A stretch of 12,093 nt of DNA, from NCBI GenBank assembly GCA_965368975.1, contig CBDUPA010000051.1, positions 1 to 12,093 on the forward strand, given 5' to 3'. Made by a program: the position numbers and the translations under genes. This document shows, one piece after another, positions 1-12,093 of this stretch (position 1 is the first letter of the stretch; every line of letters begins with the position of its first letter). Origin of the DNA: an uncultured bacterium (GTDB taxonomy: Bacteria > Acidobacteriota > Thermoanaerobaculia > Multivoradales > JAHZIX01). The notes under the pieces were generated by a model. The model saw only the letters and a list, made by a program, of their open reading frames with translations. It did not search any database and was not told where the DNA came from.

Positions 1-50
1 AGAACCAGTTGATCATGGCGAGCACGGTCCGGCTCTAGATTCATACCAGG

Positions 51-53
51 TAC
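51..53 (+). repeat. Left junction core TAC (3-bp direct repeat; integrase catalytic Tyr codon)
   Basis: ccagg|TAC|gatcgc. Integrase-like coding starts abruptly here. The same frame upstream has a stop (TAG 36-38) and no ATG/GTG/TTG before 51. Confidence 0.8.
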
Positions 54-134
54 GATCGCCACTCATACGACCCCGAGAAGTCCGATGCCTTGACCCGCTG
101 GGCGGACAGGCTGGAGCAGATCCTCGCTGGGTAA
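51..134 (+). pseudogene. int: Detached 3' fragment of the integrase gene (YDRHSYDPEKSDALTRWADRLEQILAG*)
   Basis: Hand translation of 51..134 (TAA 132-134) fits the typical post-nucleophile tail of P4-like integrases (Y-D/N-R-x-x-Y-x-x-E-K/R-x-x-A-L/M-x-x-W-A-D-x-L). It has no start codon or RBS of its own and is too short for the ORF track. Confidence 0.9.
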
Positions 135-273: not shown

Positions 274-690
274 ATGGGTTTCGAGTTCTACGAAGGCAAG
301 ACCACCGACAGCGCAGCGACCGCCGAAATCACTGTCCGCCGGGGCGGTGTCCTGGTCCTGACCGCCGCGACCGTCGAGATGCTGGGCAAGGAAACGACTC
401 ACGTCCAGCTCGGCTTTGATGTATCGAACCGCGCCATCGGTCTCAAGGCTGCGCCCGAGGGTGCCCGCGGCGGCTACCGGCTGCGGGTGCAGAGCAACAG
501 CGTCTCGCGCCTGATCGATGGCAAGCGCTTGTTTGCCGACCACGGCTTGAGCGCCGAGAAGGCGCGCCGCTTCGACGCCGAGGACTTCGGCGGTGGCGTT
601 GTCGGCTTTCGGTTGCCCGAGGCGGTCGAGGGTACCGAGATGCCGAGCAAGCCGGCAGCGCGAGCCAAGGCGCGCAGCGCCAAGAAGTGA
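274..690 (+). CDS. Hypothetical protein, 138 aa; beta-rich core with basic Ala/Lys/Arg tail, possibly DNA-binding
   Basis: AAGGAG RBS at 262-267, strong GC3 codon bias, C-terminus SKPAARAKARSAKK. Function is inference only. Confidence 0.85.
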   Translation: MGFEFYEGKTTDSAATAEITVRRGGVLVLTAATVEMLGKETTHVQLGFDVSNRAIGLKAAPEGARGGYRLRVQSNSVSRLIDGKRLFADHGLSAEKARRFDAEDFGGGVVGFRLPEAVEGTEMPSKPAARAKARSAKK

Positions 691-960
691 AGCACCCAGC
701 TTCCTCCCACCTCCGAATCGCACCTCGACTTTGCCGCTCCCACCGGGGCGGTTTTCCTTCGTAGCCACCGCCAGACCACGCACTCAGCCCTCCACGGCTG
801 CCCTCCATCAATGGAGAGCCTGCCTCCAGCCTGAACCCACCCTTGCCGGGTATCAGGCCACCTGAGTGACCTTGGTCACGCCCTCCAGGGCTCTCCATGC
901 CCTCTTCCCACCGCTGGCTACTTGATCACCACCAGACCAAGCGCTCTATTGCCCGAACGG

Positions 961-1128: not shown

Positions 1129-2031
1129 ATGATCACCACCGCCAACCCGGCCCGCCTCTACATGGCCAGCCTGTCCAAAGGCAGTCAAGGTATGCGCCGC
1201 TGCCTCGACAAGATCGTCGACATCCTCGATCCCAGCCACACGATCGACACCTATCCTTGGTGGCGGCTGACCTACGCCGACGGCATGGCCGTACGGCAAG
1301 CCCTGGTCGAACGCTACCAGCCGGCCACCGTCAATAAGATCCTTTCCACCCTGCGCGGTGTGCTCAAGCAGTGCTGGGCGCTGGGTCTGATCGACGCCGA
1401 CGCCCACCAACGCGCCGCCGCCGTGCCGAATGTGCGCGCTTCCAAACTGCCAGCCGGCCGCGCCCTGGAGATGCCCGAGATCGTGCAGTTGTTTACGGCC
1501 TGCACCAGCGATGCCGGCCCCAAGGGCGCGCGCGATGCCGCCATGCTCGCGGTCCTGTATGGCTGTGGCCTGCGCCGGGGTGAGGTCGCCCGCCTCAACG
1601 TCGCCGACATCGACCTGGAGGAGGGCGCGGTCCTCGTGCACGGCAAAGGCAACAAAGAGCGCACGGTCTACCTGACCGATGCCGGGTGCCAGTACCTGGC
1701 CGCTTGGCTCAACGTCCGGGGCGATGAGCCAGGCCCGCTCTTCTGCCCGATCCGCCAGACTGGCGAGATCCGCCACACCCGCCTGCGCGGCAGCTGCATC
1801 GCCTACATCCTGCGCAAACGTCAACAGCAAGCGGGTGTAGACCACTTCTCGCCGCACGATCTTCGACGTTCCAACGTTACGCACTTGCTGAGTGCTGGCG
1901 TCGATGTCTTTACAGTCCAGCAACTCGCCGGTCACGCCAACGCCAACACCACCCTTCGCTATGACCGCAGAGGGGAGCAGGCCAAGCGTCAAGCCGTCCA
2001 GAGTCTGGAGCTTCCGACTCGGGCTGCTTGA
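1129..2031 (+). CDS. Intact XerC/D-like tyrosine recombinase, 300 aa, no arm-binding domain
   Basis: Catalytic set present: LYGCGLRRGE (R), HGKGNKER (K), SPHDLRR (HxxR), LAGH (H), TTLRY (Y). RBS AGGAGAAAGG at 1111-1120 supports ATG 1129 over the track's TTG 922. Confidence 0.95.
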   Translation: MITTANPARLYMASLSKGSQGMRRCLDKIVDILDPSHTIDTYPWWRLTYADGMAVRQALVERYQPATVNKILSTLRGVLKQCWALGLIDADAHQRAAAVPNVRASKLPAGRALEMPEIVQLFTACTSDAGPKGARDAAMLAVLYGCGLRRGEVARLNVADIDLEEGAVLVHGKGNKERTVYLTDAGCQYLAAWLNVRGDEPGPLFCPIRQTGEIRHTRLRGSCIAYILRKRQQQAGVDHFSPHDLRRSNVTHLLSAGVDVFTVQQLAGHANANTTLRYDRRGEQAKRQAVQSLELPTRAA

Positions 2032-2116: not shown

Positions 2117-2158
2117 TTCGCAGCGAGGTAAGAGGGGGTGCCACCCGTTTCTACCTCG
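2117..2158. repeat. Palindromic repeat copy A (GGGGGTGCCACCC core), possible terminator or binding site
   Basis: CGAGGTA (2124-2130) pairs with TACCTCG (2152-2158) around GGGTG-C-CACCC. Diverged copy at 2497-2526. Confidence 0.55.
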
Positions 2159-2526: not shown

Positions 2527-2937
2527 TGCTCCACGCTGGCTCCACCCTGGTACACCTTCGGACCATGCGCCGTACCTTGGCTGAAGCTAGCCGAAGTAGG
2601 CGTTGCGTAGCGACCTGAGCTGAGCTGAGCGAGGGGACCGGAGGGTGTCGCCGGGCGTCGGCGAGGTGGAATCCGAGTGCCTTGCCCGCACCTCTGGTGA
2701 CTGGTTACGTGGTCCCGGAAACGACGAAATGGAATGCCCATACGAACTCGTAGCGACCGGCGAGATCGTGACGAGGCTCGGCGATTTGTCGCCCGGAGTC
2801 GGAGACATTTTGCCGAAGCCCGGCACAGCGAACTGGAAGTAGCCAGACAGGTTCTGCTGCACCGATCTCGCAAATGTTAGAGTAGATGCGAAGGATCCGG
2901 AGGTCTTGCCGGGAATACAGTTCAAAGGAGTAGCTAC

Positions 2938-4554
2938 ATGTTGAAGAGCTTATCGCTGATACTTCTACTAGCGAGCTTACTAGGAGCTTCCAGTCTGGAG
3001 GAAGCGTGCGGACGACTCGGTGATGTGGACCGACTTACTGGGCCCCATTCTCCTCTTCTTAGTGAATTCGGCGTTTTTCGCTCTGATGGCAGGTCTGAGT
3101 ATGACCTTATTGGTTTCACGGCCATCTCGCAGTATGGACATGATCAAGTAGCTAGTGAGTTCTTAGATCTTCCGGTTGGCGTGCATTCCTTTCAGCTAAG
3201 GCACTTCTTATCCTGCCCCCAACGCACTGGCTATGATGAGTCTTTATACATCTATCGCCAGGATTTCGATAATGTTATGTCTCGGTTCTATGCTGAAGAT
3301 TTTACGATTGACTTAGACTCTTGGGAGGTTGAAGAGCAGGATATTCCCAGGCGTATTGCAACGCATCGGCGTGATGGTGATGCAATTGTGTTGCCGATCA
3401 AACGAGGAGACGGCGCCATTCAGAAGTTCCGAATTGCATTGCTAATATCGCCGCAGGAAACCGCTAGAATAGTTAGAAAATTGAGCTGGTCTTCGATGCG
3501 CCTCATTGGTAGGGATATTGCTATCTACGATGATAGCGATATTCATGTATTGACCCGGGTCAACGGCCATCGCAAGGCATCTCAAGTTGAAGCGCTGAGG
3601 ATTATAAGAGACCATCTCGGGGATGCTTACTCAGTTATCGTATTTGATGTTGAGATTTCCCAGGAAGATAATTTTAACATTACTGAACCGAGCTGTATTC
3701 TGCCTGTCCTCCTCCACGGGGGGCTACTGGACAGGGAATTGATCAAACTAGGAGGTTATGGAGATTGCTCTCAGGCCGGTATTCTCTTTGATGGCAGGGA
3801 ATTTCATGATGACCTCAATGACTTGAGCTTGGCGTCGAAAGCCTATACAGCCTCGCAAAGGTTGCGCACCGCACTGGAGGAGTCTTCGCGTCAAGTTCGG
3901 CCTGCCTTGTGCGGGTCTAAGAACAACAATCGAGAAGTAGAGTGCGTTAGACTGACCGAGGTACTGAGTGTCTTGGATCGCCTTGAGACAGATGCGGTAG
4001 CGCTGTTTGAGCAGGAAAGGAACTTGGCGGGACTGGGTAGCTACTTCCTGGTGGGATTACATAGAATTCGCAACCTGGTCTGGTCTCTTAGAGAAGATGA
4101 CCGGTTGAGAACATCGCACGTGTCGGATCTGTCGCGGGTCAGGTTGGCTCTTGCTAACTCCTATGATTCGCATGACATTAATAGCTTGGCTATGAAGGGG
4201 AATTTGTGGATAGACACCAAGAAATGGTTGAGTGACTTGATAGATCAAGTGAGAGATACGAGTGGAGATCTCTCTGTGACAGTTTCTATCCGGAGTCTGC
4301 CAGTTGGCGCTATTGTCCGCATTTACCCTGTATTGCTATCCGAAGAAGTGAGAACTTTTAGAACAAATCAACAAGCAGAGATTTTTAGAGGCCTCTATGC
4401 ATACAAGGTTGAGTTATTTGGATACAAGACTATACAGGGAGATAATCTCGACCTAGTTAACGATAAGAGAAATGAGTTTATCTGTACACTGATTAGTGTC
4501 GAGGCGGAAGGTGATGAAGGAAACTGTGTGCCATACTCTTCTAGGGAGCCGTAG
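2938..4554 (+). CDS. Hypothetical exported protein, 538 aa; signal peptide, possible C-terminal PEGA-like domain
   Basis: AAGGAG RBS 2925-2930. N-terminus MLKSLSLILLLASLLGA. C-terminal VSIRSLPVGAIVRIY...GLYAYKVELFGYKT resembles the PEGA pattern. GC is lower than the backbone. Confidence 0.8.
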   Translation: MLKSLSLILLLASLLGASSLEEACGRLGDVDRLTGPHSPLLSEFGVFRSDGRSEYDLIGFTAISQYGHDQVASEFLDLPVGVHSFQLRHFLSCPQRTGYDESLYIYRQDFDNVMSRFYAEDFTIDLDSWEVEEQDIPRRIATHRRDGDAIVLPIKRGDGAIQKFRIALLISPQETARIVRKLSWSSMRLIGRDIAIYDDSDIHVLTRVNGHRKASQVEALRIIRDHLGDAYSVIVFDVEISQEDNFNITEPSCILPVLLHGGLLDRELIKLGGYGDCSQAGILFDGREFHDDLNDLSLASKAYTASQRLRTALEESSRQVRPALCGSKNNNREVECVRLTEVLSVLDRLETDAVALFEQERNLAGLGSYFLVGLHRIRNLVWSLREDDRLRTSHVSDLSRVRLALANSYDSHDINSLAMKGNLWIDTKKWLSDLIDQVRDTSGDLSVTVSIRSLPVGAIVRIYPVLLSEEVRTFRTNQQAEIFRGLYAYKVELFGYKTIQGDNLDLVNDKRNEFICTLISVEAEGDEGNCVPYSSREP

Positions 4555-4683
4555 GCTAGTAGGAATTGCAGTCGGAAGGCAGTGGCTAGCTTCTGAGCTG
4601 GCCTCCGCTATCGTCGTGATTCTAGCCGAAGGAACTGGGGCACCGGACTACTCGACTCTTAAGGTTGAAAGGAGGCAGTCTCT

Positions 4684-5286
4684 ATGAAGGAACCAATACG
4701 GAATCTTGCTCACACGAGACTCTACATTAGATACGTACTAACATTCGGGGTGGGCGTAGGCATTGGGCTGGCTCCGTTTCTTGGCCGAGCTGGAATTCCT
4801 GGATTCTCTGGAGTACTGCAATTGTTCCCTGTTGGTCTTCAAAGGGATCTTGTTCCTCTGAGTGCCTTTCTGATGGGAAGCGTTGCGGTCGCAGTGCAAT
4901 TCTACTCCAGGACTTACGTGGGTTATGAGAGAATCAAGAAGACATTTAGGAGAGCTCTTATGGTCCTTGCGTTGTCTTTTTTGTCTCTTGTAATTGGGTA
5001 CTCTGTGCTTGTTGTCTCGGTGCCTGTGCAAATGGCTGAAGAAAGTGTCGCCTTTGTTACTTCTGTCATGCGCCCCGATTCCTGTGTTTGCAGCAGGAAT
5101 GTTTCAGATGTGCAATGCATTCAACAGATCTCCCTGAATCCTGCTGCAGTTGAGTCCTGTTGGGGAAGTTTGCGGGTGAAGATTAGTAAATTGATACTTC
5201 GACTGAATTATCTGTTGGTCACGGCCTCATTTGGTGCGATAATTGGCATATTGTTGATTCGAGATATCAAGAAGTCGGGAGGGTAA
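4684..5286 (+). CDS. Hypothetical membrane protein, 200 aa, about 4 TM segments and a loop with 4 Cys
   Basis: AAGGAGG RBS 4669-4675. Four hydrophobic stretches. Loop SCVC...QCI...SCW before the last helix. Confidence 0.85.
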   Translation: MKEPIRNLAHTRLYIRYVLTFGVGVGIGLAPFLGRAGIPGFSGVLQLFPVGLQRDLVPLSAFLMGSVAVAVQFYSRTYVGYERIKKTFRRALMVLALSFLSLVIGYSVLVVSVPVQMAEESVAFVTSVMRPDSCVCSRNVSDVQCIQQISLNPAAVESCWGSLRVKISKLILRLNYLLVTASFGAIIGILLIRDIKKSGG

Positions 5287-5414
5287 CTTGTGTGGATTCC
5301 CACGTTGAGCCCCGAGCAGGGTGGTGTCAACTCTTGGTCGAGCATGGCAGAGTAGGCCGATGAACCACCGGACAGGTCTGTCAACTTCGTGTCGAGCCTG
5401 GCAGAAGTAGGCCT

Positions 5415-6204
5415 ATGAGCCATCAAGCACTGAGCTACAGAGGGCACCGATTCCCACCTCAGATCATCAGCTATGCTGTTTGGCTCTACTACCGGTTCAG
5501 CCTCAGCTTCCGCGACGTCGAAGATCTGCTTGCAGAGCGAGGAGTGACAGTCTCTTATGAGGCTATCCGTCAGTGGTGCGGGAAGTTTGGTAGCGAATAC
5601 GCTCGCCGAATCAAGAGAAGGGCCGGTCGCCTCGGTGACATCTGGTACTTGGACGAGATGTTCGTGAAGGTCCAGGGGCGCGAGCATTACCTGTGGCGAG
5701 CAGTGGACCAAGAGGGTGATGTCCTCGACATCCTGGTGCAGTCTTCGGCGAGATTGCCGAGCGGCGAAGCGTTTCTTCCGGAAGCTACTAAGGCGGCCGC
5801 TGGCCGCAACCAAAGGTCAGCCCAGTCTGGCCAGAAGAGCGGCCGAGCACTCGCGTGGCGAAAAAATCGGCCTTCCGAAAGCGGCCATAACTCAGTGACA
5901 AAGAGTGAGTTGCAGGTGGAACCCGAAGAAGAACTTCGAAAATTCCAAGTTGTGGAGTAGTAAGCCACTAAGGGGGCAGGGTGCAACCCCGAACCGTTTG
6001 ATAACCGACAAGCTCAGAAGCTACGGTTCGGTTCGTCGGGAAGTGATGCCCTCGGTTCCGCATATAACCGATCGTTGGGCGAACAACAGGGAAGGAGTTT
6101 TCGCATGAAGCAGTTCGTCAGCGAGAACGGCAACAGCGTAGATTCAAGAGCCCGACAGACACGCTCAGCGATTCCTCTCCGTACATGGAGTCGTTGGGAA
6201 CCTC
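5415..6204 (+). pseudogene. IS6-family DDE transposase pseudogene (frameshifts, 180-bp insertion, truncated 3' end)
   Basis: YRGHRFPPQIISYAVWLYYRF...WYLDEMFVK...YLWRAVDQEGDVLDILVQS. Frameshift near 5745 into RRDCRAAKRFFRKLL. Resumes after the insert as GQGATPNRLITDKLRSYG...NNR, then SHEAVRQRERQQRRFKS and HAQRFLSVHGVVGNL in shifted frames. Confidence 0.93.
5794..5973. mobile_element. 180-bp non-coding insertion (MITE-like) inside the IS6 transposase
   Basis: Transposase similarity stops at RKLLR and resumes exactly 180 bp later. Flanked by AAGCTACTAAGG (5782-5793) and AAGCCACTAAGG (5962-5973). Hairpin GCGGCC-GCT-GGCCGC at its left edge. Confidence 0.7.
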
Positions 6205-6266
6205 TCTGTGCCATTAATCAACTTGACGATACCGACAATACCGATCAAGTGTAAGGGAGATTAAAC

Positions 6267-7832
6267 GTGGGATTTCGCGTTGAAGTAGATGAAGACTCGC
6301 AGGCACTCCTTGACAGAATTCGAACCCACCCAGGTATGGTATTCGATCGGCCATATAAAGGATATCTCCTGTTCCTGGCTGGGGCTGCTGACAAGAGCGC
6401 GGTTGAATGGATTGCCTCCAACTCCTTAGCGCTCGACTCTTTGACTGGCGAGGATGTAGCTTTTGCAGTCTTTGTGCGCAGGTTTAAAATGAAGCTAATT
6501 ACAGGGCACCGCACTTGGACCAAGAAAAGATTTCTCGGTGAGATTCCAATTGAGGGAGATCTGAAGATACACAGGATATCAGAATTGATAAAGTCTGGGC
6601 AATGGGGATGGGTTGCTGATGGGGATGAAATTGCAGCTGTGACCTACGCAGTTGATCGCATAGCAAGAGGCCTGAACATTCTGGACAAGCTTCCGTGCGT
6701 AGTAGTACTAGATGCTGTACCTTCAAACAGAATAAATGTAATTCCTCTTTCGGAAGCCACGAGAGCATCCTTCATCGAGCTGCTTCGCAGGGCTCTGTCA
6801 AAGTTATTGAGAATGAAGGGTTGCGAGCTGATCGAATCTTCAGTTCAGCGCCTTACCAATCTCCATGGCGCAATCGATAGGCCCTCGCGTCTTCGTCTGT
6901 CAACCAAGCAATCGTTAAGAATTGCCAAGAGAGACCTAGAGCGTGCAACGCTTTCTCATCCTACATTTCCAGAGGAGCCTGAGAAGATTTCGGTCAATAT
7001 TTCTAGTGGGATTTTAACAACAATATCAAGGCAATGGATGGAGGCCGCCGAAGCACTCCGGAATGGATCTTTGCCGGAATTCCGTAGAGCTCTGTCTGGT
7101 CGATCAGGAAGGGAAAAGTACAAATCTAAGAAGATGTGTCAACTTCCTGGGCTCAGAGTACAAGACTTTCGGAGTGTATTTCAGCACGCTGAATGTCATT
7201 CCCTGGAGTTGCTCCAGTTGAATACAGCAATTCAGTACTGCCAGGCCAAAAGGCTAACGACGGGAACTGAGAAGGAGAATCATATTGGTGACTTTGTGCG
7301 GGAGCAAATTCTCAGCACGTCAAGAAGTCGAGATCTGAAATTGGATAACAAGGGAGAGGTTGAGAGAAGTCCTGAATCTCTTGAAGGCAGGCGAGAGACC
7401 ATCATCGACGATATTATGTCGCGCGTTCCATCTGAAGAAAGTCTTCGACGCAACATAATTGAGATCAGGAAAGATAGAGCCTTACAGAAATGGCAAAATG
7501 AGCTGGCAGAGTACGAAGAGAGAACCGCAAAGCACATGAAAAACTTGGATGCGCTCAAACAGAAAGTAGCGACGATCGAAAGACAATTGAGTTCCTTGAG
7601 TCCTGAAAGAACGGAAGAGCTAACTCAAGAGGCGGCGGCGAAGTATGAAGCCGCTGTGAGAGATTATCTTGCAGAGAGTCCTCCGTCGTTCTGGGAGGCA
7701 GTTTCGGATTCTCTTAGAGAAATGAAGCTTGAGCATTACAGCTCCAGCATCCCTGTACGTGCTGCGGAAATTGCTGGAGGAATATTCAAGCCAGATTTCT
7801 TGCTTAAATTTTGGCAGACCGCGGCGGGCTAA
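6267..7832 (+). CDS. Hypothetical protein, 521 aa; N-terminal alpha/beta domain and C-terminal coiled coil
   Basis: GTG start with AAGGGAG RBS 6253-6259. Long lower-GC ORF. Charged heptad-like region (LQKWQNELAEYEERTAKHMKNLDALKQKVATIERQL). Confidence 0.85.
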   Translation: MGFRVEVDEDSQALLDRIRTHPGMVFDRPYKGYLLFLAGAADKSAVEWIASNSLALDSLTGEDVAFAVFVRRFKMKLITGHRTWTKKRFLGEIPIEGDLKIHRISELIKSGQWGWVADGDEIAAVTYAVDRIARGLNILDKLPCVVVLDAVPSNRINVIPLSEATRASFIELLRRALSKLLRMKGCELIESSVQRLTNLHGAIDRPSRLRLSTKQSLRIAKRDLERATLSHPTFPEEPEKISVNISSGILTTISRQWMEAAEALRNGSLPEFRRALSGRSGREKYKSKKMCQLPGLRVQDFRSVFQHAECHSLELLQLNTAIQYCQAKRLTTGTEKENHIGDFVREQILSTSRSRDLKLDNKGEVERSPESLEGRRETIIDDIMSRVPSEESLRRNIIEIRKDRALQKWQNELAEYEERTAKHMKNLDALKQKVATIERQLSSLSPERTEELTQEAAAKYEAAVRDYLAESPPSFWEAVSDSLREMKLEHYSSSIPVRAAEIAGGIFKPDFLLKFWQTAAG

Positions 7833-8200
7833 TTTTAGCTAGAAATAAGGATCAACTGGCAGGGTATTGTCACGTTGAGCGCTGTGCGGAAAGGCTTCGC
7901 CCGTGTCTCGGCCATCCTCTTGACCTGCACCCCGAAAACTGGTCCAGCTAGAACGAGAGAATCTCAATTTCTGAGGTACTCCCGATTTCTGGTTTCTCCT
8001 TGTAGCCAACGGTAGCAAGAGGAGCAAGTCCAGGCGGGACCAGGGCGGGGCAGGTGGGTCCATTTTAGGGTCCCGCAGGACGTTAATTTACCGCAGCCCC
8101 CTGACAGCCACTGAAACGCTCCAAGCCGAATCATTTCAGTACTTACCGGCGGGGTATGTGACCTACTGCAAGCCGGCCAAACCTCATGCAAGCCTTCGCT

Positions 8201-8221
8201 TAACTGATTCGTAATCAGTTA
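8201..8221. promoter_or_regulatory. Perfect inverted repeat TAACTGATT-CGT-AATCAGTTA, putative protein-binding site
   Basis: 9-bp perfect arms with a 3-bp spacer, AT-rich, in the non-coding gap between convergent genes. Confidence 0.5.
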
Positions 8222-8426
8222 CGTTGGTCAGGTTGGCCCGATTCTTGCTTTGATCCTAACCACTGTGTCCACAACAGTTAGTCTGTTGTAGCTGCTCAGC
8301 GAGTGAGTGGGGATTCATGGTGCGGGACTCCATCGGGGCCTGCTGGCATGCAAGTCAAAGGACTGGGCACGATTGTCCTGGCTCGTCTCGGGTTCTATGG
8401 GCGCCGCTTCTCGGCGTGGTGTCCGG

Positions 8427-8900
8427 TTAGAGGTAGCCTTGGATCGACAGGTTTGGGCTTCGATACCCAGCAGCAACCATCCGGGCCAGGAGGCCATCTG
8501 CTTCGGCGAGCGTCAACTTGTCGGATCTGACTAGGTTGATCAGAGCGCCAAGCGTTCCGGAGATCTTCAAGCCAAGTTTGTGAGCGACCTTCCGTGCGTC
8601 CCGATCATCGGTCACCGCAATGGCGTCGTTGGCCTTCGCTAGAGCTAGGCAAGCGATCTCTCCTCGATCCAAGGGAGGTTGGAGCCGTTCCACTTCCGCT
8701 AGGTGTTCTGGCTCAGGCTCCAGTACAGGAATCTCGCTCCAATCCAAGATTGGAAGAAGCCCGAGGCGTTCGCCTTCTCTCAGTTCCTCCATCACGGCAT
8801 TCGGCATGACCAAGTCAGGGAAGGCTCGCGTCGGAAGATCCGGCCTCTGGACGTGGGCGAAATTGCTCAGGAGGGTGGTGTTCGAGACAGCGCGGATCAT
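8427..8900 (-). CDS. DUF3368-type PIN-domain protein (VapC-like toxin), 157 aa
   Basis: AVSNTTLLSNF, PNAVMEEL, LDRGEIACLALA, AVTDDRDARKVA, GTLGAL motifs. ATGA overlap with the upstream gene at 8897-8900. Confidence 0.9.
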   Translation of the reverse strand: MIRAVSNTTLLSNFAHVQRPDLPTRAFPDLVMPNAVMEELREGERLGLLPILDWSEIPVLEPEPEHLAEVERLQPPLDRGEIACLALAKANDAIAVTDDRDARKVAHKLGLKISGTLGALINLVRSDKLTLAEADGLLARMVAAGYRSPNLSIQGYL

Positions 8901-9298
8901 GAGGCTGTGGCGGCCAATTCCTCAGCTATTGCAATCTCTTCTCTGGCTTCGGCTTCGTCTACAGGCCCTTGGCGCAGGGGGATCTCTAGTCGAAGGAACC
9001 GAGCTTGGAGGTCGAATCTTGAAATTCCGAGCATCTCGGCTGCCTTACCCAGACTTACCTCTTCGTTGAGATAGGCGTGCATTGCGCGACTCTCGAGAGG
9101 GAGTTGACTATTGCCGGGCGACAAACGACTGACCCAACTGGCGATCCCTTGTAGCAGCCGAAAGTCGAGGGGGTCCAGGAGGACGACCTGCTCTTGGCCA
9201 GCCGACTGGAGCACGGCGGGCTGACCGTCTCGGACTTGGGCAACCACATCGGTAGTGTGGCCTTCCAGATCAGATGTCGAGATGGTTCGAAGGGTCAT
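8897..9298 (-). CDS. Putative antitoxin, 133 aa: Phd/YefM-like N-terminus plus UPF0175 HTH domain
   Basis: GGAG RBS before ATG 9298. MTLRTISTSDL...VVAQVRDGQPAVL...VVLL is Phd-like. AYLNEEVSLGKAAEMLGISRFDL is the UPF0175 pattern. Translationally coupled to the PIN gene. Confidence 0.85.
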   Translation of the reverse strand: MTLRTISTSDLEGHTTDVVAQVRDGQPAVLQSAGQEQVVLLDPLDFRLLQGIASWVSRLSPGNSQLPLESRAMHAYLNEEVSLGKAAEMLGISRFDLQARFLRLEIPLRQGPVDEAEAREEIAIAEELAATAS

Positions 9299-9368
9299 GG
9301 CGGTCTCCAGAGAGTGCTGAGAACTAGAAGCACCTAGCCTGTGCTCAGAGGGCTTCGGCTCAGCCTGC

Positions 9369-9396
9369 ATTCTACTCCATGCCACCCGCCGGTCAC
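9369..9396 (-). promoter_or_regulatory. Possible promoter of the TA operon
   Basis: Minus strand GTGACC (9396-9391), 16-bp spacer, TAGAAT (9374-9369), about 70 bp upstream of the antitoxin start. Confidence 0.4.
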
Positions 9397-9557
9397 GTGG
9401 TTGACCATCCGCCTGAGCCCGAGGTATTGGTACCAGCCCATCCGGGTGGCAGCCTGTTCAGCCTTGCTGGCCCAGGCTGCGCCCTTCCAGCAAGACGGCC
9501 CGATCCGGTGTTACGAGCACCGAACCAGGCCTAGCCACTCAAAGGAGGATGAATCCC

Positions 9558-9968
9558 ATGAGTGACCAACCGCAGCATACCAACACGCAGCCTCCGAACT
9601 CCCTGCAATCGCGTCACTGGGAGGCGCACGCCGTCTTCCGCGAGACGTACCTGCACCTCTACCCGGAAGCTCACATCCGCGACGCCTTCCGCCGCGTCGG
9701 CGTCACCCTCTACGACAACGCCTTGCTCCACGAAGAGACGTACCGCGAACGCGGCGAGGTGCCGGTCAAGTCCGACTTGCGCGCCGCGCTCGAAGATCTG
9801 CGCCAGCTTCAGGGCTACATCCACCACCTCGGCGCCGAACCCGGCAGTGTCAACGATGCCGAGATCGTCCAGTTCCAGAGCCTGGCAATCGAGGTCTCCA
9901 ACCAGTTGGCTGCACAAGCGATTCGGCTCGAAGAGAAGCTGGGAACCGCTCCGGACCTGGAGAGCTGA
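9558..9968 (+). CDS. Hypothetical helical protein, 136 aa; first gene of the integrase operon
   Basis: AAGGAGG at 9542-9548 fits ATG 9558 (ATG 9549 is too close). Strong GC3 bias. Next gene starts 3 bp after the stop. Confidence 0.85.
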   Translation: MSDQPQHTNTQPPNSLQSRHWEAHAVFRETYLHLYPEAHIRDAFRRVGVTLYDNALLHEETYRERGEVPVKSDLRAALEDLRQLQGYIHHLGAEPGSVNDAEIVQFQSLAIEVSNQLAAQAIRLEEKLGTAPDLES

Positions 9969-9971
9969 TTG

Positions 9972-10961
9972 ATGCCGGACATGGACACCGGCACCTACGT
10001 CGCACAAGCGGAGCAAGAGCTACAGCGGTGCTGTGAGCGGCTGCTTGGTCGCTTCGGACCAGAGCTTGCGCGACATCCACTCCAAGTCCGCATCGAGGGC
10101 TTGCCCACTAGATCGGAGCGCAGCAAGGACGAGCAGCCTTATCCCATCCGGGTCCCTGCGCATGCACTGGCCGGTTCAAGATCCGAACTCTTGGCGGCGC
10201 TGCTCCATGCGATAGTGCACTGGGTCAACGGACTTCGCGGCCTCAAAGACTGCTGCCATCGCGGGTACCACAGCCGAAGGTTCCGCGATCTTGCGCAGGA
10301 GATTGGCTTCGAGGTGGGGGAGCGGGTCCACCGCTTCGGCTGGGTCGACCTCCGGCCCGGTGCAGAGCTGAAGGCGGAGCTGCAAGAGATCGTGCTCGAT
10401 GAGAGTTCTCTGGCTCCGCTGCTTGCAGCTCTGTCCGCCGACCAAAGAAGGCCTCGACTGTGCCCTGCGAACCTCCTCAAAAGCCAGCCGACGAGCCCAT
10501 ACTGGCGCGCCAAGGAACTGTTGTTGCCGAGGGTGCCACGCTTTCGCGTCGAGCTGGTGCGTGAGGCTAGTGTACCGCTGCACAGCTATCCCCGGGTCCA
10601 GGCTGGAGGTGATGCGGCGGCGCTGCTCTGGCAAGTGCTGCAGGGCTATGACCGCGAGGCTCTGGCTGTACTCTTCCTCGACGCAAACCGCAGAGTGATT
10701 GGCTGGGACGTACCGTACATCGGCATCTTGACGGGAGCCCAAGCCGAGCCCCGGGGGGTCTTCGTGCCGGCTCTGCTGGCCAATGCGCGGGCGGTCGTGG
10801 TGGGGCACAACCACCCGTCTGGCAATCCGAGACCGAGCCGGCAGGATGAGCGGTTCACGTATCGGCTGCGCGAGGCCGGGCGATTCCTGGGTGTCGAGCT
10901 GTACGCATCGCTCACGCTCGCGGGCGCTGGCCAATGGTGCCAAGTGCAGCCGGTGCGGTGA
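9972..10961 (+). CDS. radC: Fusion of an SprT-like (degenerate HAxxH) domain and a RadC-like JAB/MPN domain, 329 aa
   Basis: C-terminal DREALAVLFLDANRRVIG...HNHPSGNPRPSRQD is the RadC JAB motif. N-terminal ALLHAIVHW...GYHSRRFRDLAQEIG resembles SprT-like HExxH...H with E replaced by A. Confidence 0.85.
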   Translation: MPDMDTGTYVAQAEQELQRCCERLLGRFGPELARHPLQVRIEGLPTRSERSKDEQPYPIRVPAHALAGSRSELLAALLHAIVHWVNGLRGLKDCCHRGYHSRRFRDLAQEIGFEVGERVHRFGWVDLRPGAELKAELQEIVLDESSLAPLLAALSADQRRPRLCPANLLKSQPTSPYWRAKELLLPRVPRFRVELVREASVPLHSYPRVQAGGDAAALLWQVLQGYDREALAVLFLDANRRVIGWDVPYIGILTGAQAEPRGVFVPALLANARAVVVGHNHPSGNPRPSRQDERFTYRLREAGRFLGVELYASLTLAGAGQWCQVQPVR

Positions 10962-10971
10962 GGGAGGTGGC

Positions 10972-12051
10972 ATGCCGAAGGCCCACCTGACCCACCGCAT
11001 CATCGACACTTTCGTTGCCGGGCGTTGGATGACCGATTATTGGGACGGACAGTTGCCCGGCTTCGGGGTGCGTGTCTCCAAGAGCGGTCGCAAGACGTTC
11101 ATCGTGCGCTACCAGGGCGCCAACGGCAGCAAGCGACGTCTCAATCTGGGAATGTACCCGGTGATGAGCTTGGCCGAGGCCCGCGACCAAGCGCGCGAGA
11201 AGCTCGCGGCGATCGCACGCGGTGAGGATCCGCAGGTCGAGAAAGTGGCCGAGCGACAGGCGCCGACCTTCGGGGAGCTGTCCGAGATCTACCTGGAGCG
11301 TCACGCCAAGGTGAAGAAGCGCCGCTGGCAGGAAGATGAGCGAAAGCTGCGCGTGGACCTGCTGCCTCACTGGAAGAGTCGCAAGGCCGGGAGCATCGCC
11401 CGCGCCGACGTCACGGAGCTACTGGACGGCATCGTCGCCCGAGGCGCGCCGATCATGGCCAATCGGGTCAAGGCGCTGATCTCGAAGATCTTCAACTTCG
11501 GGATCGGGCGCGGCTTGGTCGAACACAATCCCTGCCTTCTGGTGCCGATGCCGGCACGGGAGCGTCCGCGCGAGCGGGTGCTCAGTGAAGATGAGATCCG
11601 TCGATTGTGGACGCTCCTCGAAGACGAGAATCCGACGATGAGTGCCACCTTCAAGATGCGTCTCCTGACCGCGCAGCGGGGGGTCGAGGTCTTGAAGATG
11701 CGCTGGCGGCACATCGACGGCACCTGGTGGACGATCCCTGCCGAGGTGGCCAAGAACGGCTTGACGCACCGCGTCCCGCTTGCGCCCCAGGTCCTGACAC
11801 TGCTCGACGAGCTACGCCCGCAGACGGGCAAGTCGGCGTGGGTCTTTGCCAGTCCGCGCAAGACCAGCCGTCCTATCGTCTCGGTGCAAAGTGCGGCCGA
11901 ACGTCTCGCCGAGCGGTCCGGCATTGCGTTCACGCCCCATGACCTGCGGCGCACGGCGGCCAGCTTTATGACGTCGATGGGCATCTCGCGCCTGGTCGTC
12001 TCGAAGCTGCTCAACCATGTTGAGAGTGGTGTCACCTCGATCTACCTATGA
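10972..12051 (+). CDS. int: Tyrosine integrase with N-terminal arm-binding domain (P4-like), truncated right after catalytic Tyr358; 359 aa as integrated, 384 aa when rejoined
   Basis: GGGAGGTGG RBS before ATG 10972. Arm domain DYWDGQLPGFGVRVSKSGRKTFIVRY...LGMYPVMSLAEAR. Catalytic TAQR, AKNG, PHDLRRT, LLNH, TSIY. Ends Y-L-stop and lacks the normal C-terminal helix. Confidence 0.95.
   Translation: MPKAHLTHRIIDTFVAGRWMTDYWDGQLPGFGVRVSKSGRKTFIVRYQGANGSKRRLNLGMYPVMSLAEARDQAREKLAAIARGEDPQVEKVAERQAPTFGELSEIYLERHAKVKKRRWQEDERKLRVDLLPHWKSRKAGSIARADVTELLDGIVARGAPIMANRVKALISKIFNFGIGRGLVEHNPCLLVPMPARERPRERVLSEDEIRRLWTLLEDENPTMSATFKMRLLTAQRGVEVLKMRWRHIDGTWWTIPAEVAKNGLTHRVPLAPQVLTLLDELRPQTGKSAWVFASPRKTSRPIVSVQSAAERLAERSGIAFTPHDLRRTAASFMTSMGISRLVVSKLLNHVESGVTSIYL
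12043..12045 (+). repeat. Right junction core TAC (integrase Tyr358 codon)
   Basis: cgatc|TAC|ctatga. Integrase similarity ends here and the same trinucleotide opens the tail at 51-53. Confidence 0.8.
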
Positions 12052-12093
12052 ACGTGTCAACTACTGCGCGGAAGTCTTCATCGGAATTCTTCT

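Follow-up and report, generated by a model that had tools for sequence, protein, structure and literature searches.

We analysed a 12,093-nt stretch of DNA from an uncultured bacterium of the Acidobacteriota (contig CBDUPA010000051.1 of assembly GCA_965368975.1), referred to here as the window, with particular attention to the tyrosine recombinase gene at 1129–2031. The window is the entire contig C51 of a genome in 59 contigs (7.1 Mb, 99.3% complete), and C-numbers below denote contigs of that genome. A sequence-only reading of this DNA had described a complete recombinase gene about 1 kb inside the left end, on the same strand as an integrase gene, int, that is split over the two ends of the window, and both observations proved correct (Table 1). 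The same reading took the window for one element bounded by the trinucleotide TAC, with the recombinase acting on that element or at the TAC break itself. We favour a reading in which the recombinase would instead belong to the backbone of a repeated island family that uses a tRNA gene as its attachment site, and in which the break in int would be a separate event.

Identity and integrity of the recombinase gene

The sequence AGGAG sits 14 nt 5' of the recombinase ATG. An in-frame TTG is present further upstream, at 922; nevertheless, homologues begin at the MITTANPA position. The protein falls within the Pfam family Phage_integrase (PF00589; E 1.6e-34, 119.6 bits against a cut-off of 27.1), and residues Arg149, Lys173, His243, Arg246, His269 and Tyr278 are invariant across 29 aligned sequences, namely the recombinase and 28 homologues. 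This catalytic set aligns with the GLRxxE, GKGNKER, HxLRH and GH...Y motifs of XerD from E. coli (PDB 1a0p). The closest solved structures by sequence are archaeal XerA (4a8e, 3.9e-23) and XerD (1a0p, 2e-19), and no arm-binding domain was found in a domain search.

The gene is present in ten copies on repeated islands and is not a single chromosomal housekeeping gene. All seven full-length copies are open, and the three further copies are interrupted by contig ends alone. Over the 21 pairs of full-length copies the median ratio of nonsynonymous to synonymous substitution rates (dN/dS) is 0.105, compared with 0.128 for int (one copy of which has a stop codon) and 0.18 for the upstream gene p138. 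Because the genome holds ten paralogues, with every full-length copy open and a dN/dS this low, the open reading frame (ORF) is beyond chance. Judged from these sequence comparisons, the recombinase is an intact mobile-element enzyme, borne on the island backbone and under purifying selection.

By name, the best NCBIfam matches are XerC, then XerA and XerD. The XerC score is 139.3 bits, with a cut-off of 335.15, and the XerD score of 117.8 bits falls well short of the 329.6 needed for that equivalog family. The scores for two integron integrase families are likewise under their cut-offs (TIGR02249, 80.5 bits against 265; NF011946, 50.2 against 435). Elsewhere in the genome, the host has an XerD gene on C27 that exceeds the cut-off (340.6 bits) and an XerC-like gene on C11 (333.2 bits).

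Relatives of the recombinase were called at E ≤1e-10, which gave 4344 proteins among 8000 candidates scored; their names include Acidobacteriota, Thermoanaerobaculia and 'Deltaproteobacteria' metagenome-assembled genomes (MAGs). The clade is uncharacterised and very widespread, and the kind of enzyme that it represents, an island-borne simple tyrosine recombinase, is already known. A literature search on tyrosine recombinases of Acidobacteria found nothing specific to this clade.

A repeated island backbone

Many paralogues, at 76–86% nucleotide identity, exist in the genome for the leftmost 2 kb and the rightmost 2.6 kb of the window. A protein-level map gives the backbone order p139 – RadC-like – P4-type Int – p138 – recombinase, and this module is contiguous in seven other copies. 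That contiguity is difficult to reconcile with the window being one element bounded by TAC, as are the identical sequences outside the int break and the presence of a tRNA-Thr site elsewhere in the window, both of which are described below.

The backbone also exists in a second form. On C37, C52 and C57 the recombinase comes after terminase-like and Mom genes, accompanied on C52 by PrimPol, and these contigs carry no int. Two backbone types in the genome use the same recombinase, and these three copies speak against a tie between the recombinase and the split int. In seven of the eight copies whose contig continues, similarity between paralogues ends at most 47 nt past the recombinase stop codon, and the same loss was seen in three other genomes; the recombinase therefore lies at the edge of the conserved backbone.

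One unit has lost both p138 and the recombinase. At C28:59350–61410 (855–2908 of L114; L-numbers denote the loci described below) the two genes are replaced by an IS91-family Y2 transposase and an adjacent XerD-like tyrosine recombinase. The latter stands before the same conserved block that follows the recombinase in other copies; as a second instance of this pairing of recombinase and block it was rejected, being part of the IS91-like unit. Most of the small contigs (C41–C59) are pieces of island units. The ends of C32 (48262 nt) overlap by 55 nt, which suggests that it is probably a circular replicon.

A tRNA-Thr attachment site and tandem arrays

ARAGORN places a tRNA-Thr(CGT) gene at c[32296-32370] of C15, immediately ahead of a backbone copy and at the head of an array. 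This tRNA region was aligned with the ten copies of a conserved segment that corresponds to window 8029–8356. Common to them all is a core that copies the anticodon stem-loop of the tRNA, set between a P arm and a P' arm (Table 1). After the core, five of the ten copies continue with a near-perfect tRNA-Thr 3' half, and the remaining five, the window included, with unlike sequence of the same length.

Each of the ten core and P-arm copies is preceded, at a distance of 5–24 kb, by the conserved block that lies downstream of the recombinase gene (2739–2838 in the window). The gene itself has been replaced by the IS91-like unit in the copy C28b and would lie past the contig end in C38 and C48. 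Behind tRNA-Thr, units are arranged in tandem, with at least two on C15 (C15:1–32370) and at least three consecutive ones on C28 (C28:32800–65600). The order within a unit is core – tRNA 3' half/P' – variable slot – p139 – RadC – Int – p138 – recombinase – about 700 nt – block 2739–2838 – cargo – P arm – core.

An island in the Islander sense lies between an intact tRNA gene and a 3' fragment of it that is displaced but equally oriented, and this family presents the tRNA-Thr gene together with the five near-perfect 3'-half copies after P arms. Taken as a whole, the arrangement is the classical picture of islands that would have integrated at the anticodon loop of a tRNA gene and become stacked in tandem. 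Based on this, the window probably runs from the recombinase to the core of one unit and on from the core to int of the next, with a copy of a repeat, R, on either side. It is less likely that the window is a unit inserted through TAC.

The recombinase clade in other genomes

To place the backbone in a wider context, we used 80 loci with the recombinase clade (44–69% identity, many phyla), drawn from one-genome-per-species contigs and searched with the window proteins. A p138 gene was found in 25 of these loci, of which 23 belong to the 31 with at least 53% identity; in 22 cases it is upstream of the recombinase and on its strand. DUF6908 lies directly upstream of the recombinase in 15 loci, and RadC is present in 16; a literature search for DUF6908 found no paper. 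The sequence-only reading had looked to co-occurrence of this recombinase clade with split int genes, and the survey does not bear this out: a P4-type int-like match was obtained in a single locus (L044), at 31% identity, 10 kb downstream and on the opposite strand.

With tyrosine and serine recombinase queries, a second recombinase was found within 10 kb in eight loci, and in the other 72 the clade member is the sole recombinase found. The latter include islands at tRNA genes. L030 runs tRNA-Arg – RadC – methylase – ATPase – ... – p138 – DUF6908 – recombinase – chromosomal gene. The island of L070 is bracketed by a 54-nt direct repeat that extends from the anticodon stem to the 3' end of tRNA-Val, and in L046 a tRNA-Arg fragment (nt 32–77) stands ahead of RadC – p138 – recombinase. 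RadC, p138 and the recombinase are also adjacent in L040. In the circular form, the order recombinase – attachment site – RadC is common to the tRNA-site relatives and the window family. Judged by this synteny, the P4-type Int seems to have been added between RadC and p138. Among 400 phylum genomes no relative of the Int exceeds 48% identity, and the eight regions fetched had no p138, RadC, recombinase or tRNA nearby.

Several recombinase-bearing islands can occur tens of kb apart in one genome, as in L041, L042 and L068, which lie on one 475-kb MAG contig, and in L047 and L049. An attachment site in the 3' end of the recombinase gene was also considered and rejected. Eight loci have extra 3' fragments; the nucleotide check of L024 returned a self-match, and in the other seven loci the fragments start at varying positions (amino acids 172–259) and resemble decayed tandem copies, not a fixed attachment site.

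The break in int and the putative repeat R

The Int' product of the window ends ...SIY-L-stop, with the Tyr codon TAC at 12043–12045. Ten copies of int in the genome have their 3' end on a contig, and seven of these are contiguous with the tail: the body is joined directly to the 27-codon tail in C15, C28 (twice), C45, C49, C50 and C56. In the three cut copies the int sequences differ right up to the junction, reading TCGATC, AAGATC and GCAGTC before TAC. The int genes adjoining the junctions are only about 80% alike, whereas the sequence outside is 100% identical at three right and two left junctions.

The way in which the contigs end is informative here. Overlaps of exactly 55 nt are shared by many pairs of contigs, a trace left by an assembly graph with k=55. 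C51 and C55 stop on the same 55-mer and C56 stops two bases later, and ends of this kind therefore point to several unique paths entering one repeat. Because identical flanks stand beside int genes that are only about 80% alike, and because the contigs stop one 55-mer in, the outside sequence most likely represents the two ends of a separate multi-copy element, R, which would have entered three or more diverged int genes at their Tyr codon. R is probably similar to an insertion sequence (IS). If joined, its ends would read TTCATACCAGG-TAC-CTATGAA.

The body of R was sought in several ways. Short-word BLAST with both ends returned only chance words and no other occurrence in the assembly, and no contig end overlaps C51 by 15 nt or more. 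The shortest contig kept in the assembly is 2702 nt, and a shorter collapsed repeat, or one binned out by depth, would therefore be missing. The left end, exact or with up to three mismatches, occurs only in its own three contigs among 60 relatives and 400 phylum genomes; exact scans found nothing in metagenome contigs (both ends) or in viral contigs. The one public run found to share words with the window contains 23% of those sampled, with contigs of 170–360 nt at a depth of about 3, and gave no joints or useful loose ends.

A tyrosine recombinase normally requires that both partners have similar core arms and an identical overlap of 6–8 bp. Here TAC is all that the int side has in common with the outside sequence, and the flanking arms are unlike, which makes the two a poor substrate pair for such an enzyme. 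The int-side arms are not conserved beyond coding needs, and four of the seven intact int copies use TAT for the tyrosine. A 3-bp duplication, or a 2–3-bp crossover at TAC, would be more in keeping with a transposase or a serine recombinase. R may be a site-specific element aimed at integrase genes; we consider it rather unlikely that it is a homing-type element which singles out their catalytic-tyrosine codon and so locks islands in place.

Other lesions of int were seen on C56. The copy at C56:2466–3539 has an internal TGA stop, and the next unit contains a HicA-like toxin ORF, an orphan copy of the 801–901 element, a glyoxalase-like gene and a 5'-truncated int that ends in R.

Other features of the window

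The coordinates of all features are collected in Table 1.

Table 1. Features of the 12,093-nt window, in order of position.
Feature	Position	Strand	Remarks
Right end of putative repeat R	1–50		Outside the left TAC; 47/47 common bases identical at the C54 end
int, 3' piece	51–134	+	TAC at 51–53, 26 further codons, stop; tail Y-DRHSYDPEKSDALTRWADRLEQILAG-stop
p138	274–690	+	138 amino acids, no family match; usual upstream partner of the recombinase clade
Terminator-like hairpin after p138	733–752	+	Conserved in aligned copies
attX, conserved structured element	801–901	+	About 90 nt long, upstream of the recombinase; nested inverted repeats
Simple tyrosine recombinase (Xer/XerA-like)	1129–2031	+	Intact ORF, 300 amino acids from ATG at 1129
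Palindrome GGGTGCCACCC then TACCTC, first direct copy	2136–2146		3' of the recombinase
Palindrome GGGTGCCACCC then TACCTC, second direct copy	2505–2515
Conserved block, about 100 nt	2739–2838		Ends sharply at ...GAACTGGAA; 14 copies aligned
Cargo	2938–7832	+	ORFs of 538, 200 and 521 amino acids without family match; truncated IS6 transposase at 5415–5960
P arm, element-specific	8034–8203		GGGACC/GGGTCC repeats; conserved in 10 copies
Attachment core, copy of the tRNA-Thr(CGT) anticodon stem-loop CTGATTCGTAATCAG	8204–8218	+	Common to all ten copies
Degenerate tRNA 3' half and conserved P' arm	8219–8350		P' arm in ten copies ends ...GGGGCCTGCTGGCATG
PIN-like toxin	8427–8900	-	Cargo between P' arm and p139
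UPF0175/Phd-like antitoxin	8897–9385	-	With the PIN-like toxin, PADLOC candidate defence system PDC-S70
p139	9549–9968	+	Backbone; no family match
RadC-like JAB protein	9969–10961	+	Backbone
P4-type int, body	10972–12051	+	Arm-binding (Arm-DNA-bind_3), central and catalytic domains; cut after the Tyr codon
Left end of putative repeat R	12046–12093		48 nt past the right TAC, 100% identical in C55 and C56

The hairpin after p138 suggests that the recombinase has a promoter region of its own. Between the hairpin and the gene lies the 801–901 element, which we call attX. In most copies its nested inverted repeats are CTCTCCATCGTGGAGAG, GTGACCTTGGTCAC and CCCTCCAGGG. The genome holds twelve instances, eight upstream of the recombinase and four orphan, and rearrangement breakpoints cluster at about 802 and 890. 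A PrimPol-Mom-terminase module of 7.2 kb on C52 stands between direct repeats of attX (183 nt, 75% identity). In the related loci, no similarity to the window's non-coding blocks, attX included, was seen. Seven of 70 related loci nevertheless contain a further copy of some of the 450 nt that precede their recombinase gene, such as the 87-nt repeat (97%) of L097; in L075 the gene is flanked by a 42-nt repeat.

Downstream of the recombinase, sequence otherwise varies between copies apart from a palindrome. With up to one mismatch, GGGTG(G/C)CACCC, usually followed by TACCTC, is present in all nine copy regions downstream of the gene, with at least two sites in eight of them and one in C49. Exact copies of the motif number 22 in the genome, of which six fall in the 5.9 Mb of large contigs (C1–C27 without C7 and C15), and away from the islands the palindrome is nearly absent. 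A family-specific protein may use it as an operator. The idea that it is a site conserved throughout the clade was rejected, with zero matches to GGGTG[GC]CACCC within 1.2 kb downstream of the gene in the 80 related loci.

Beyond the conserved block at 2739–2838 the copies carry unrelated cargo, and the block is present twice in each of C41, C54 and C28. Its consensus RNA fold is weak, at about -10.5 on either strand and with no convincing hairpin, and Rfam gave no match in the window at E ≤1. The cargo has a guanine-plus-cytosine content of 44–50%, compared with 60–68% for the backbone. An inverted CTGGAA/TTCCAG pair at two cargo borders was dropped as a candidate, being clear in a few copies only.

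For p138 we obtained a structural model with a pLDDT (predicted local distance difference test) of 77. The best fold matches are MraZ (1n0e; Z 6.1, root-mean-square deviation 8.7) and plant B3 domains (Z 3.6–4). Foldseek returned nothing at E ≤0.001, and the VIA-align score of Z 6.1 for MraZ falls under the usual noise level of 7–8. The model gives a hint, and only that, that p138 may be an AbrB/MraZ-like DNA binder.

The proposed role of the recombinase and its alternatives

The reading that we favour, at roughly even confidence, is that the recombinase is the island backbone's own tRNA-site recombinase and that the TAC break of int is a separate event brought about by R. The recombinase would be the signature enzyme of a widespread and uncharacterised island family with the ancestral layout tRNA – RadC ... 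p138 – (DUF6908) – recombinase. In this genome the family has at least ten copies, in tandem behind tRNA-Thr(CGT), and most copies would have gained the P4-type Int between RadC and p138. The enzyme would act at the copy of the anticodon stem-loop within the window, integrating and excising islands and sorting the units of tandem arrays. The short, multi-copy R would have gone into three or more diverged int genes, each time at the codon for the catalytic Tyr and presumably by means of an enzyme of its own. We infer both the assignment of the enzyme to this site and the nature of R. Part of the sequence-only reading survives in this account: since the recombinase is intact, under purifying selection and borne on the element, a role in the element's own recombination is likely, and the dimer resolution or cargo exchange that it also offered is possible. 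The proposed link of the recombinase to the TAC break, or to a switch that turns int on and off, is not supported.

Several observations weigh against this account. P4-type integrases commonly target tRNA genes, and the P4-type Int, which has an arm-binding domain, could be the user of the tRNA-Thr site with its repeat-rich P arm. The case for R is drawn from contig ends alone, and a target locus that is repeated, heterogeneous or variable in the population would give the same junctions. Many loci from Chloroflexota have no visible island features, and in one that was checked with Pfam (L089) the neighbours look chromosomal; island-flanking direct repeats were found in few relatives. Finally, in four distant relatives a different integrase stands beside the tRNA gene: in L050 and L083 this is a tyrosine recombinase, in L051 and L079 a large serine recombinase. 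The clade recombinase there lies at the far end of the island, a position that fits an accessory role, for example as a multimer resolvase.

Such an accessory role is the alternative that fares best, and we regard it as possible but clearly less probable. In this case the P4-type Int, or in relatives the tRNA-adjacent integrase, would integrate and excise the islands, and the recombinase would act on multimers or tandem units to resolve them, or at attX to insert and exchange modules. L050 and L051 share the layout PrimPol/D5 – unknown – recombinase, and their tRNA-proximal integrases belong to different classes; L079 and L083 are similar. With a third of its instances away from the gene and breakpoints near both of its ends, attX could be the recombinase's site of module uptake, and the direct repeats around the C52 module and the upstream repeats in a tenth of the related loci point the same way. 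Cre, Xer and IntI use simple sites, and like them the recombinase has no arm-binding domain. Neither attX nor the palindromes are conserved in other genomes, however, and no replication gene was recognised in the p139-RadC-Int-p138 backbone, so that a need for dimer resolution is not evident there. The tRNA-site role is preferred because the recombinase is so often the sole recombinase in an island, including the tRNA-gene islands of L030, L046 and L070.

The islands may also have two recombinases with two attachment systems, which we consider rather unlikely. The Xer-like enzyme would then act at the tRNA anticodon loop and Int at a second attachment point within its own catalytic-Tyr codon; insertion would cut Int in the 'suicidal' manner of SSV and Mx8, and the Xer-like enzyme would be the sole exit.

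Somewhat less probable still is a crossover in int at TAC, as in Mx8 and SSV, that would have inserted the whole window as a single complete island, with Int truncated and the intact recombinase excising the island or recombining at TAC. The empty target site expected in this case is TTCATACCAGGTACCTATGAA. The window does have TAC at either end, the left one opening the int tail and the right one closing the body; the joined outside sequences form the dyad TTCATA-CCAGGTACC-TATGAA, which has the look of a recombinase core; and the P-arm/core/P' site inside the window is in the unrecombined configuration. There is precedent in the attP that lies inside int in Mx8 (PMC6070905) and in the 'suicidal' integrases of archaea (PMC8371274). 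Against a crossover is that the identical right flank occurs at three different int genes and the left flank at two, which would require several identical targets or a mixed population, and that neither flank continues into any contig of an assembly of this completeness. The arms before TAC in the three cut int copies are moreover unlike TTCATA/TATGAA, with only TAC itself in common; most intact copies have TAT in its place; and the clade is not associated with such int genes elsewhere.

That the recombinase is a host housekeeping XerC/XerD or an integron integrase with no island function, as its best family names and the variable cargo downstream of the gene might suggest, is scarcely credible, being refuted by the missed cut-offs and by its ten island copies beside separate host XerD and XerC-like genes, and no series of attC-like repeats was seen (no attC model was run).

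The clade marks islands in Acidobacteriota, Chloroflexota, Planctomycetota, Armatimonadota and other phyla, usually with p138 and DUF6908 as partners; with names for the clade and its attachment sites, island-finding programs could mark out many islands in environmental genomes. The genome itself is an unusually rich natural experiment, with at least ten diverged copies in tandem arrays, two backbone types, and int repeatedly cut at the catalytic codon. What stands out is the unseen repeat at the catalytic codon of int in three instances and the presence of two recombinases in one tandemly stacked island family. Should R prove specific for sites in integrase genes, one mobile element would here be disabling others. 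A more practical lesson is that a gene seemingly split over the two ends of a contig should first be checked against assembly repeats.

Comparison with known systems

The recombinase resembles XerA of Pyrococcus abyssi (4a8e) and XerD of E. coli (1a0p) in its length of about 300 amino acids, its two domains and its R-K-H-R-H-Y set. It differs from them in scoring under the XerC, XerD and XerA cut-offs and in being multi-copy and island-borne, in a host that has its own XerC/D.

The multimer-resolution recombinases of phages and plasmids (Cre/loxP of P1, plasmid Xer-like resolvases) and IntI are encoded beside their own site on a mobile element. Like these, the window has a simple tyrosine recombinase with a structured element just upstream and variable cargo after the gene. 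Unlike in those systems, no loxP-, cer- or attC-like site was identified, and the IntI score is under its cut-off. The gene also reads toward the cargo, not away from it. Typical integrases of tRNA islands have an N-terminal arm-binding domain; the present recombinase has none, and a true P4-type Int is found in the same island.

With Mx8 IntP and SSV-type elements the window has in common an int in the form of a body and a short C-terminal piece, as those systems would leave. Their attB, however, has a core in common with attP, whereas here only TAC is common to both sides, which places the window outside that group. The outside sequence is also a multi-copy identical repeat in this genome, and most int copies are intact within arrays. 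'Suicidal' integrases are stated to be exclusive to archaea (PMC8371274).

The island family matches the anticodon-centred islands of Islander (class A). As in those, the islands have a tRNA-Thr 3' half that begins at the anticodon stem and they are stacked behind an intact tRNA gene, and relatives of the recombinase are found with tRNA-Val and tRNA-Arg fragments. In the Islander report, 2083 islands have an anticodon-centred attP and tandem arrays are reported (PMC4383910). Arrays there rarely exceed two islands, with four arrays of at least three in a database of 3919 islands (PMC4383910). Against that norm, C28 alone carries at least three consecutive units, and the genome as a whole has ten copies of the attachment site.

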